Positions 1-7,698 of a stretch of DNA of 21,477 bases are shown here, piece by piece. Every line of letters starts with the position of its first letter. Within the stretch, counting starts at the first letter, position 1. The DNA lies in assembly GCA_041640035.1 (NCBI GenBank), contig JBEQBC010000011.1:1-21477 (forward strand), given 5' to 3'. The DNA is from Candidatus Nanohaloarchaea archaeon. Lineage in GTDB: Archaea > Nanohalarchaeota > Nanosalinia > Nanosalinales > Nanosalinaceae. Made by a program: the position numbers and the translations under genes. The notes beneath the pieces were generated by a model. That model was not told the DNA's origin and made no database searches. It was given only the letters and a program-made list of their open reading frames with translations.

Positions 1-90
1 TACTCAGCTATTCGCCCCGAACGAATCGGTGGACTAGCATGGCTAAATCGGACTCCGATAGCAGTAACCTCCGGCAGGATCAACCGGAAT
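1..90 (-). rRNA. rrs: 16S rRNA, 5' end (gene continues off the left edge of the window)
   Basis: Minus strand reads ATTCCGGTTGATCCTGCCGGAGGTTACTGCTATCGGAGTCCGATTTAGCCATGCTAGTC..., the conserved archaeal 16S 5' terminus. Confidence 0.98.
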
Positions 91-5271: not shown

Positions 5272-5318
5272 AAACAGTTCTTGGTTATTCCGGAATTAAA
5301 TTATGATTTGATGGTTAG

Positions 5319-5393
5319 GGCGGAGGGCGGGATTCGAACCCGCGTCCCGACCGCCACAAGGTCGGAGTATAGACCAGCTAACCTACCTCCACC
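5319..5393 (-). tRNA. tRNA-His(GTG) with genomically encoded G-1; full CCA not encoded
   Basis: Cloverleaf: acceptor GTGGAGG/CCTCCGC, anticodon stem CGACC/GGTCG with loop TT-GTG-GC, T arm GCGGG-TTCGAAT-CCCGC, discriminator C73, extra 5' G at 5393. No intron. Confidence 0.97.
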
Positions 5394-5431
5394 ACAAAAA
5401 TATGATGTGGTCTTAAATGTACTCTGCTCCT

Positions 5432-5605
5432 TTATCCGAGTTGGATCAGGAGTGTGACGATTATGGCTGCGCTCAGTGTCATTGCGGCCGCGCCTGTGTA
5501 AAGGTAGTGTTCGCGGCCTTCGGTATCCTGGTTGTTTCTGTATAGCGGTAGACCGATCAATGCGAGGCCTACTGCGGCCAGGAATGTGGCGCCTGTTAGT
5601 ACCAT
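5432..5605 (-). CDS. Small two-helix membrane protein (57 aa), absent from the ORF track
   Basis: Manual translation: MVLTGATFLAAVGLALIGLPLYRNNQDTEGREHYLYTGAAAMTLSAAIIVTLLIQLG*. Two hydrophobic segments flank a polar loop, an SD-like GTGAT lies just upstream of the ATG, and the ORF fills the gap between sRNA and tRNA. Confidence 0.7.
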   Translation of the reverse strand: MVLTGATFLAAVGLALIGLPLYRNNQDTEGREHYLYTGAAAMTLSAAIIVTLLIQLG

Positions 5606-5634
5606 TGTTTGTGTATCACATCGTTGGAAGTTGT

Positions 5635-5713
5635 TTGGTCAGCGGGTGTTCTCGTCATCATCTCCTCTTGAGGTTTCGAGGTCAGTCGATGTCAGTCCGC
5701 TTTCATCATCCAA
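5635..5713 (-). ncRNA. Box C/D 2'-O-methylation guide sRNA (double guide)
   Basis: Minus strand: TTGG-[C ATGATGA 5709-5703]-AAGCGGACTGACATCGA-[D' CTGA 5685-5682]-CCTC..GAGG hairpin-AG-[C' ATGATGA 5661-5655]-CGAGAACACCCG-[D CTGA 5642-5639]-CCAA. All four boxes are consensus, there is a 4-bp terminal stem, and the D guide is 12 nt. Confidence 0.88.
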
Positions 5714-5734
5714 TAAGTCAAATGTGGGGCGTTA

Positions 5735-5750
5735 CTTAGAAAAACCCTTC
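5735..5750 (-). promoter_or_regulatory. Putative promoter of the C/D sRNA
   Basis: Minus strand GAAGGG-TTTTTCTAAG (purine-rich BRE-like plus TATA-like) about 30 nt upstream of the sRNA 5' stem. Confidence 0.45.
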
Positions 5751-5754
5751 CCTT

Positions 5755-7698
5755 TTACCCGAGATCCACTCTTTTCAGTAGCTGGGCGTTGAAAGCCACG
5801 ATAATCGTGGAAAGCGACATTATCAATGCGCCAATAGCTGGCTGTAATGTGAATCCGATAGGTGCTGCGACTCCTGCGGCTAGCGGTATTGCGAACGCGT
5901 TGTATCCTGTTGCCCAGAACAGGTTCTGTTTCATCTTTGAGTAGGTTGCCTCACTGATCTTCATGATTTTCACGACGCCTAGTGGACTGTCGTTCACCAA
6001 GACGATGTCTGCGGATTCAACTGCTACATCGGTTCCGCTTCCGATGGCAACCCCGATATCTGCGCGTGTCAGTGCTACTGCATCGTTCACTCCATCGCCT
6101 ACCATCATCACTTCTCCGTTTTCCTGTAGCTCCTGGATCTTCTCATCCTTTTCATCTGGTAGTACTTCAGCAAACCAGTTGTCGATTCCGAGTTCTTCTG
6201 CTACGGCTGAAGCAACATCTTCGGAGTCGCCAGTTATCATCGCTACATCGATACCCCTGCTGTGTAGTTCTTCGACCGTTTCACGGCTTTCATCCCTGAT
6301 ATGGTCGCCGAGAGAGACAGCACCAAGGACTTCATCTTTCACAAGGTATACTACTGTTCTTCCTTTCTCACCTTCCCTTTCTTTGAACTCTTCGTACTTT
6401 TTTTCGACTTCCAGCTGTTCTAGCAGCTTTGGTCCACCGGCGTAGTAGGTCTCGCCGTTGACATCTGCTTTGACTCCTTTTCCTTTGATAGCTTCGAAGT
6501 TCTCGGTTTCAAGAGTCTCCAGATCTTTATCTTCAGCTTTCTCTACGATTGCTTTGCCGATTACATGTTCTGAGTTCTTCTCGATTGAGGCAAGCTTCTC
6601 AAGGTTTTTGTCGCTGATTTCTTTGTTCTCTACTTTCTGTTTTCCTTCTGTCAGTGTTCCTGTCTTATCGAAGGCTACTGTGTCGATCTCTCTTGCCTGT
6701 TCCATGGCTGTCCGTTTGCGGACTACTACTCCGTTCTTTGCGGATAAGGCGGTACTGATTGATACTACTAAGGGTATTGCTAGGCCGAGTGCGTGTGGAC
6801 ATGCGATTACAAGTACGGTTACGACTCTTTCTAGGGTTGTGAGTCCGAGTCCTGTTGCGAGCGTCCATGCTACTCCTGTAACCAATGCTGATCCGAGTGC
6901 GATGTAGAAGAGCCATCCGGCGGCTTTGTCGGCGAGAAGCTGTGTCTCGGTCTTGTCTTCCTGTGCTTCGTCAACCAGCTTCATGATTCCGGATAATGCT
7001 GTTTCGTCGCCGGTTGCGGTGATCTTTACCCGGAGCGCTCCTTCCTGGTTGACGGTTCCGCCGATCACTTCGTCCCCTTCTGATTTGGAGACGGGTTCGG
7101 ATTCTCCTGTAATCATCGATTCATCGACTGAGGAGTCTCCTTCAACTACTTCTCCGTCAGCTGGTATCGAGCTTCCCGGCCGTACAAGCACTTTGTCACC
7201 TTCTTCCAGTTCTGAAACTTCTACTTCTTCTGTTTCATCTTCTCCTACTATTTTTTCTGCTGTGTTCGGTACAAGGTCTTTGAGTTCGTCGAGGGCTGAA
7301 GATGCCTGGCGTACTGATCTCATTTCGATCCAGTGGCCGAGCAGCATGATGTCGATCAGTGTTACTAGTTCCCAGAAGAATGAGGAGCTGCCTGGTATTA
7401 CCAGTGAGGCCATGCTGTAGGTGAATGCTACGATTATGGCGAGTGAGATCAAGGCCATCATGCCTGGTTCTCTGTCTTCCAGCTCTCCTTTCGCCATCTT
7501 CAGGAATGGCAGTCCTCCGTAAAGGAAGATCACTATGGAAAATACTGGTACGATCAGGTTACTGCCTGTGAATTGTAGGGAGGTGTATCCGAGTAGTCCT
7601 GATACGAAGGTACTGAAGTAGAGTACGGGTATTGATAGTAGTGTGGAGATGAAGAACTTCTTCTTGAACATTTTTTCGTGGTGTTTGTGGCCGTCCAT
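5755..7698 (-). CDS. copB: Copper-translocating P1B-type ATPase (CopB / P1B-3 type)
   Basis: TGES, CPH in the transmembrane site ([10 protein letters not shown]), DKTGTLT, SEH, TGD, GDGVND, YN and MSLST in the final helices. The His-containing N-terminus is very short. Confidence 0.92.

Follow-up and report, generated by a model that had tools for sequence, protein, structure and literature searches.

A conserved double-guide box C/D sRNA gene of Nanohaloarchaea with predicted targets at U2552 and U2504 of 23S rRNA

Introduction

Downstream of a P-type ATPase gene of a Candidatus Nanohaloarchaea archaeon (assembly GCA_041640035.1) lies a stretch of 79 nt with the boxes of a C/D guide RNA, which raises the question of whether it is the gene of a small RNA (sRNA) and, if so, which nucleotides its two guides address. 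The window analyzed was the whole of positions 1 to 21,477 of contig JBEQBC010000011.1 (21,477 nt), and the element occupies 5713-5635 on its minus strand. A preliminary description, made from the letters of the window, had proposed a double-guide box C/D sRNA for the peptidyl-transferase centre of 23S ribosomal RNA (rRNA), with 2'-O-methylation predicted at U2552 (Um2552) and U2504 (Um2504; E. coli numbering). The element is almost certainly a genuine, conserved and unannotated box C/D sRNA. The best explanation, with a probability of roughly 0.8, is a double-guide sRNA gene of about 79 nt with predicted targets at U2552 (D guide) and U2504 (D' guide), which is proposed to act through the known mechanism of C/D ribonucleoproteins (RNP).

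Results

Anatomy of the element

The four boxes, the TTGG/CCAA terminal stem and the D'-C' hairpin were all present where the preliminary description had placed them, on the minus strand (Table 1). As in the box C/D class, the outer boxes C (RUGAUGA) and D (CUGA) lay close to the 5' and the 3' end, respectively, and the order was C-D'-C'-D. With generous spacer ranges, the four-box pattern occurred once in the 978,572-bp genome and not at all (0) in each of 20 block shuffles, so that the four-box element is no chance constellation. No Rfam family matched the sRNA at its gathering score; with relaxed thresholds only weak matches to generic archaeal C/D-box families were obtained (sR3, sR17, sR45 and others; best sR3, 14.1 bits vs. 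a cut-off of 41).

Archaeal C/D sRNAs that guide methylation as a rule keep both guide spacers (C to D' and C' to D) at an optimum of about 12 nt, and a D'-C' loop of 3-9 nt (k-loop) is typical of them. The C'-D spacer of the element (12 nt) fitted the rule of about 12 nt. Its D'-C' spacer of 20 nt with a 4-bp hairpin (13-20 nt in the family) fell outside the k-loop range, and such a hairpin-type spacer varies the internal motif without contradicting the C/D class. The hairpin would be placed where the canonical stem of the internal C'/D' kink-turn is expected. In a relative outside the window's family (G025), the D'-C' loop had only 3 nt.

Table 1. Features of the sRNA gene, its neighbourhood and related loci of the same genome (window coordinates unless a contig is named).
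Feature	Coordinates	Strand	Remark
Terminal stem, 5' half (TTGG)	5710-5713	-	Pairs with CCAA 5635-5638, 4 bp
Box C (ATGATGA)	5703-5709	-	TGATGA column block invariant in 41-sequence alignment
D' guide, 17 nt	5686-5702	-	Last 10 nt pair with 23S 2500-2509; D'+5 opposite U2504
Box D' (CTGA)	5682-5685	-	Invariant in 41-sequence alignment
D'-C' spacer, 20 nt, hairpin CCUC...GAGG, 4 bp	5662-5681	-	Minimum-energy fold and covariation
Box C' (ATGATGA)	5655-5661	-	Invariant block in 41 homologs
D guide, 12 nt	5643-5654	-	Positions 2-9 pair with 23S 2549-2556 (A-loop, helix 92); D+5 opposite U2552
Box D (CTGA)	5639-5642	-	Sequence and alignment of 41 homologs
Terminal stem, 3' half (CCAA)	5635-5638	-	Pairs with TTGG
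A/T-rich TATA-like element, putative promoter	5735-5747	-	About 26-38 nt upstream of box C
P-type ATPase gene	5755-7698	-	sRNA 42 nt downstream
57-aa open reading frame	5432-5605	-	Starts 30 nt past the sRNA; no Pfam match
tRNA-His	5317-5394	-	Next after the 57-aa open reading frame
16S rRNA gene, 5' end	1-90	-	At contig edge; sRNA 5.5 kb upstream, same strand
Second box C/D sRNA	G000:C4:45214-45291 (= L096:1515-1592)	+	D guide with N+5 on G2553
Nop5 gene	G000:C5:1539-2291 (= L002:1474-2226)	-	250 aa

Conservation across the phylum

The comparison set comprised 70 genomes of the phylum, 50 of the window's family and 20 of other families. In 37 of the 70, a half-pattern composed of C' box, AACACC and D box was matched, compared with 1 match with the reversed control. 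An alignment of 41 full-length sRNAs from 35 genomes served as the basis of a covariance model (R1), which gave 76 matches in 53/70 genomes (47/50 in the window's family and 6/20 in other families). The homologs in other Nanohaloarchaeota for which the preliminary description had proposed a search were thus found, and its double-guide assignment to the peptidyl-transferase centre was strengthened by 7-nt guide cores that were invariant or nearly so and complementary to just the two rRNA segments proposed. Matches in the other families had low scores, and box D was degenerate in 5 of these 6 genomes. Five such loci (L148, L149 and L151 of G037, G026 and G029; L152 and L153 of G031 and G032) retained the A-loop guide GUGAACACCC, with CCGA or UUUA as box D, UGAAGA or UGAGGA as box C, and model scores of 27.8-34 bits.

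Three types of guide were recognized ahead of box D or D', at least one of them in all 76 matches: AACACCC-N (U2552 type), GAACACC-N (G2553 type) and GACAUCG-N (U2504 type). Combinations were U2504 with G2553 (24), U2504 with U2552 (22), U2552 only (13), G2553 only (10), G2553 with U2552 (5), U2552 with G2553 in swapped positions (1) and U2504 only (1). In every class, positions 2-8 from the box, centred on the fifth guide position (N+5), were invariant or nearly so, and positions 1 and 9-12 varied; the constraint is therefore a 7-nt seed centred on N+5. The U2504 core GACAUCG was invariant in 46/46 guides. In the U2552 class (37 guides), positions 3-7 were invariant, position 2 was C in 34/37 and position 8 was A in 36/37. 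The U2552 and G2553 guides were one complement shifted by 1 nt, each extended as GGGUGUUC predicts, a pattern difficult to account for if the guides do not aim at helix 92. The D' core was absent from the pattern with which the homolog set was seeded, so that its recurrence was largely independent of the way in which the set was collected.

The D'-C' hairpin covaried in the 41 homologs: 88.1% of cells were paired, compared with 54.8% in shuffles and 31.7-65.0% in slid controls, and the covariation score was 0.91 vs. 0.26 (equalled by 0/500 shuffles), with 52 vs. 14.6 double changes. A terminal helix of at least 3 bp was present in 23/41 homologs, with a mean of 2.98 bp compared with 2.26 ± 0.14 for mismatched flank pairs. 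Spacers of the homologs were 10-18 nt for D' and mostly 12-13 nt, up to 15 nt, for D.

A search of 185,579 species, each represented by one genome, gave 40 matches to the double-guide pattern: 33 in records whose titles name Nanohaloarchaea, Nanosalina, Nanohalobium or Nanohalarchaeota, 3 in records of an uncultured archaeon or euryarchaeote, and 4 in bacteria, these last without box C and box D and in a number that fits chance. The titles agree with the taxon supposed in the preliminary description. A BLAST search with a 161-nt region returned many short matches in relatives; several look-alikes in coding sequence (GGAGATGATGACGAG) were dropped on inspection.

Pairing of the guides with 23S rRNA

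No 23S rRNA gene of its own was found in the assembly of this genome, and pairing was read on 12 full or partial 23S genes of relatives of the same order, one of them of the same genus. In 12/12 the A-loop (helix 92) read [A/G]GGGUGUUCACC[U/C] and the central loop ACUUCGAUGUCGGCUC. The numbering of U2504, U2552 and G2553 held when checked by alignment of one of these genes to rrlH of NC_000913: U2504 is the U of CGA-U-GUC, U2552 the first U of UGUUC, and G2553 the nucleotide next to it.

The D guide formed 8 contiguous Watson-Crick (WC) pairs from position 2 to position 9; beyond these, A faced A at 2557, a single isolated pair formed at position 11, and positions 1 and 12 were unpaired. Position 5 paired with U2552 (A:U). 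Within the 23S and 16S loci of the same genus, the D guide paired best with the A-loop. The D' guide formed 8 WC pairs, one G-U and one further WC pair (positions 1-10, contiguous), then a C-A mismatch and, at the twelfth of its last 12 nucleotides, another G-U, with an A:U pair at N+5 with U2504. The 2504 site was among the two best D'-guide sites in the same-genus rRNA loci. A transfer RNA (tRNA) was rejected as the target of the D guide, the best match being just 6 bp. U2504 and U2552 lie 48 nt apart (targets 51 nt apart, start to start), and this fits the usual layout of archaeal double guides, which usually aim at sites less than 100 nt apart (PMC4644070).

Both N+5 assignments of the preliminary description, to U2552 and to U2504, stood once the numbering had been checked. 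The extent of pairing changed. A full 12-bp pairing of the D guide had been claimed and gave way to 8 contiguous pairs plus one isolated pair, and the G2551-U2557 closing pair that perfect pairing would need was seen in none of the relatives, residue 2557 being A. For the D' guide, about 13 nt with two G-U pairs had been claimed; the site at 2500-2509 was retained, and the length was reduced to 10 contiguous pairs with one G-U. The target sequences given there were partly wrong, in that the D' target reads UCGAUGUCGGCUC, not ...GGUUC, and the A-loop has A, not U, at 2557.

Second sRNA and guide repertoire

A second box C/D sRNA was present in the same genome, with a box C, a 13-nt D' guide, box D', hairpin, box C', a 15-nt D guide and box D. 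With GAACACCU as the end of its D guide next to box D, N+5 falls on G2553. Guides for U2504, U2552 and G2553 were thus all present in this genome, and likewise in 21 other genomes of the set. The earlier proposal that one RNA serves both sides of the A-site was retained in part: the U2552 and U2504 guides do share one sRNA, and G2553 is covered by the second. No clear target for the D' guide of the second sRNA was found in the relatives' rRNA. Half-motif matches numbered 12 in this genome, compared with 1-6 in shuffles, and otherwise lay within coding sequence; 5 further R1 candidates in this genome (E up to 5) were rejected, none having four boxes.

In many genomes the same D' guide was present in both sRNAs, once beside the U2552 guide and once beside the G2553 guide. 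Six relatives carried U2552 and G2553 guides in one sRNA: L048 (G046), and L051, L052, L055, L056 and L064 (G050, G013, G052, G010 and G016), and in G046 the two guides were swapped between the D' and D positions. The guides combined and swapped in these six relatives show that guide cassettes are shuffled as modules. The D' guides of 10 homologs with other specificities, the second sRNA of this genome among them, had no convincing conserved target in the relatives' rRNA, a possible site for G045 excepted. The D' guide of one sRNA of that genome (L085) was complementary to GCAAGAAGCCC, about 730 nt into 23S rRNA, over 11 pairs including 2 G-U. All of the 23S genes checked (4/4) had the site, which in that lineage may serve as a further target.

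Protein machinery and RlmE

The three proteins and the rlmE gene that the preliminary description had singled out for checking were searched with profiles. Fibrillarin (PF01269, 229.8 bits), Nop5 (PF01798, 166.3 bits) and L7Ae (PF01248, 94.2 bits) were all present in this genome, the genes of fibrillarin and Nop5 being adjacent and intact. RlmE was found neither in this genome, which is 89% complete so that absence is unproven, nor in the 69 others of the phylum set; the profile controls were positive in Haloferax volcanii. The best score of PF01728 (FtsJ) among the 70 genomes was 37.8 bits, and TIGR00438 (the RlmE equivalog) was above its cut-off in 0/70 (best 35.6 bits). The PF01728 match of this genome (20.5 bits) was rejected as RlmE, the protein being an RsmB/NSUN m5C methyltransferase (PF01189, 173.9 bits).

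Nop5 of this genome aligned only to residues 127-375 of a solved Nop5 of 388 aa. Stop-to-stop frames of Nop5 were 247-284 aa long in 45/46 matched relatives of the window's family (253 aa in this genome), compared with 297-362 aa in other families of the phylum where the match was full-length, with 75-100 more N-terminal residues. No separate gene for the N-terminal domain was found by hidden Markov model (best E 0.13) or tblastn (best E 0.038) searches; PF08156 was uninformative for this domain, no archaeal control scoring above its cut-off. In solved C/D RNPs, the N-terminal domain of Nop5 tethers fibrillarin.

Discussion

Proposed mechanism

The anatomy, the guide cores kept across the family, the hairpin covariation, the complementarity to relatives' 23S rRNA, the protein genes and the failure to find RlmE are results of the present analysis; transcription, RNP assembly and the methylations themselves we infer. 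L7Ae would bind the terminal C/D kink-turn and the internal C'/D' kink-turn, the stem of which would be the covarying hairpin, and Nop5 and fibrillarin would complete the RNP. During assembly of the 50S subunit, helix 92 would be bound by the D guide at its 5' strand and loop, and U2552 would be 2'-O-methylated by fibrillarin. This guided methylation would stand in for RlmE, which fills the role in bacteria and a homolog of which is predicted to fill it in Haloferax. The D' guide would pair with 2500-2509, 48 nt upstream in the central loop of the peptidyl-transferase centre, with predicted methylation of U2504. Holding both 23S segments would help to fold helices 90-92, and the sister sRNA elsewhere in the genome would handle G2553. 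The D guide very probably addresses U2552; that the D' guide actually methylates U2504 is favoured only slightly over its not doing so.

Several observations weigh against this explanation. The C-D' spacer is 17 nt here, and 10-18 nt in homologs, compared with the 12-nt optimum, and the N-terminal domain is absent from Nop5 of the window's family. The pairing rests on relatives' 23S rRNA, the own 23S gene being missing from the assembly. The contiguous run is only 7 pairs in 15 of the 37 homologous U2552 guides, and in rRNA of about 4.5 kb chance alone not infrequently yields a 7-mer match; target rankings from a single genome are noisy. Counts of A-loop guides are partly circular, since the homolog set was seeded with AACACC. 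A same-genus genome (G001, 96% complete) carries only the G2553-type sRNA, and no U2552-type sRNA was found in its syntenic region. In 16S rRNA, the core of the D' guide could pair too, namely with UGAUGUC, position 2 then forming a G-U. Published criteria require at least 9 bp with a WC pair at N+5, relaxed in double guides to a G-U or one mismatch (PMC4644070); on the relatives' 23S rRNA, the D duplex, with its 8 contiguous pairs and 1 after a mismatch, falls under the 9-bp limit and agrees only with the relaxed form, and the D' duplex, with 10 contiguous pairs including one G-U, reaches the limit. In 23S rRNA of Haloarcula marismortui, Table 2 of PMC2584109 has no methylation at the equivalent of 2504.

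Alternative explanations

The alternative that deserves most weight, although unlikely, is that only the D guide methylates (U2552) and that the D' guide is a tether or chaperone on 2501-2507, which would raise the local concentration or fold helices 90-92 without producing Um2504. The D' spacer, longer than 12 nt here and variable among homologs next to the mostly 12-13 nt of D, suggests that D' may serve in this way instead of, or besides, guiding methylation, and the recurrence of one D' guide in both sRNAs of many genomes fits accessory anchoring. The table for H. marismortui agrees with it, and a chaperone role of double guides has already been proposed (PMC4644070). The D' core, however, is invariant exactly at positions 2-8, with a WC A:U pair at N+5, in all 46 guides, which is the geometry of a methylation guide, and a fixed register of the core to box D' is not needed by a mere anchor.

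Improbable is a different RNA target of the D' guide, either the 16S site UUGAUGUCGGAC, which lies about 43 nt on the 3' side of the motif GGAUUAGAUACCC, or the 5' end of tRNA-Gly(GCC). With the guide of the window, the former gives 10 contiguous pairs including 2 G-U and is present in 4/4 16S genes examined, and the latter gives 11 contiguous pairs including 3 G-U. Both, however, need a G-U within the invariant 7-nt core, which is paired 7/7 by WC pairs at the 23S site. Position 2 is G in 46/46 guides and never A, though A would pair better with the U of 16S, and the match to tRNA-Gly(GCC), dropped as a candidate, hangs on guide positions 9-12, which vary between genomes. Only the 23S site, among the candidate D' sites, adjoins the target of the partner guide. 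Hardly credible at all is a cluster of short motifs that arose by chance, within an intergenic spacer or a 3' untranslated region, and has no function at the RNA level: the boxes are short and Rfam gives nothing above threshold, but the genome holds the pattern just once and the shuffles never, homologs with near-invariant cores and a covarying hairpin extend through most of the phylum set, and the sRNA stretch is better conserved than the adjoining coding gene (98% identity over 125 nt in the same-genus genome G002, compared with 88% for the ATPase gene). The comparative sequence data contradict the chance explanation.

Comparison with known systems

Guide RNAs of this kind, with the same main target, are already known from C/D-guided Um2552 in other archaea; what is new is to find them in Nanohaloarchaea, together with a paired guide for G2553 and a guide for U2504. 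No description of C/D guides was found in the literature on Nanohaloarchaea, in which "C/D" was unusable as a search term. No report of 2'-O-methylation at U2504 was found in the literature, nor a mention in the main part of PMC4644070; the supplementary tables of PMC4644070 and PMC2584109 lay outside the search. A U2552 guide is predicted in Pyrococcus abyssi (sR25; PMC2584109), and C/D-guided U2552 is predicted in 5/7 archaea (PMC4644070). The sRNA of the window shares with these the RNP class, the N+5 logic, the target nucleotide in helix 92, and the double-guide layout with a second target less than 100 nt away. It differs from them in that the window's family has a covarying D'-C' hairpin of 13-20 nt instead of a short loop, conserves only a 7-nt core, and has a partner guide for U2504.

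RlmE/FtsJ (RrmJ) acts on the same nucleotide, presumably with the same role in the A-loop, but is a stand-alone 2'-O-methyltransferase of 23S U2552, whereas the system described here would be RNA-guided. In Haloferax volcanii, the RlmE homolog HVO_0180 is predicted for Um2587 (2552), and in halobacteria the searches of those authors for a U2587/G2588 guide failed (PMC2584109). The C/D guides of that species comprise the tRNA-Trp intron, a tRNA-Met guide and a Gm1950 guide (PMC2584109). It resembles the present organism in being a halophile with a very small C/D repertoire and with fibrillarin, Nop5 and L7Ae, and differs in that none of its C/D guides, as given in that source, addresses the A-loop or U2504. 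In yeast, snR52 guides Um2921 and Spb1 makes Gm2922 (PMC2584109), which likewise gives adjacent Um and Gm with a C/D-guided Um; here, unlike in yeast, an RNA apparently guides each of the two A-loop positions, by means of two paralogous guides whose registers are shifted.

A conserved and unannotated RNA gene family is added to the very small genomes of Nanohaloarchaea, and its guide RNAs would explain the retention of fibrillarin, Nop5 and L7Ae in them. The near-universal Um2552 is apparently RNA-guided here, compared with the predicted RlmE homolog of Haloferax, which would be a non-orthologous replacement. Three modifications, Um2552, Gm2553 and the predicted Um2504 in the A-site cleft, are now directly testable, and the (nearly) invariant 7-nt seeds on N+5 are a natural data set for the minimal guide length kept by selection. 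The hairpin-type C'/D' motif and the Nop5 lacking an N-terminal domain point to a variant RNP. A joint reading, tentative and on balance doubtful, is that the window's family gets by with a minimal C/D system, some two sRNAs dedicated to the peptidyl-transferase centre, which would replace RlmE (Um2552) and add Gm2553 and Um2504 by means of 7-nt seeds and the shortened Nop5; if true, the RNP would have an architecture unlike those solved.

Genomic context

The ATPase gene, the sRNA, the 57-aa open reading frame and tRNA-His were all on the minus strand (Table 1). Upstream of 42 homologs, A/T-rich hexamers peaked at -34 to -30 from box C, 13 of them beginning at -31, and a run of at least 4 T followed box D within 25 nt in 26/42; both features suggest that the sRNA genes are separate transcription units across the homologs. 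In the copy of the window, the A/T-rich element was present and the downstream T-run was absent, which would allow read-through toward the 57-aa open reading frame and tRNA-His, and the 57-aa open reading frame and the sRNA could be co-transcribed. Contigs from four public runs (two recorded as RNA libraries, two guessed to be so) were compared with 5300-6000 and matched tRNA-His only; they continued into unlike sequence on both sides and came from other organisms sharing the tRNA.

The 16S gene was broken at the contig edge, so the rRNA operon was unassembled. Most of the genomes that allowed a judgement had the sRNA gene linked to this operon. Among 8 genomes with both genes on one contig, a 16S gene lay at most 5.5 kb from the sRNA gene in 5; of the remaining cases, the sRNA gene was 8.1 kb from 23S in one genome and far away in two. 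Distances between 16S and the sRNA elsewhere were 1.7 kb in G020, 0.56 kb in G021, 3.6 kb in G003 (opposite strand) and, across the record start, about 5.1 kb in G008. In G002 (L157, L026; G002:C57), about 1.45 kb of extra DNA lay between the ATPase gene and the sRNA.

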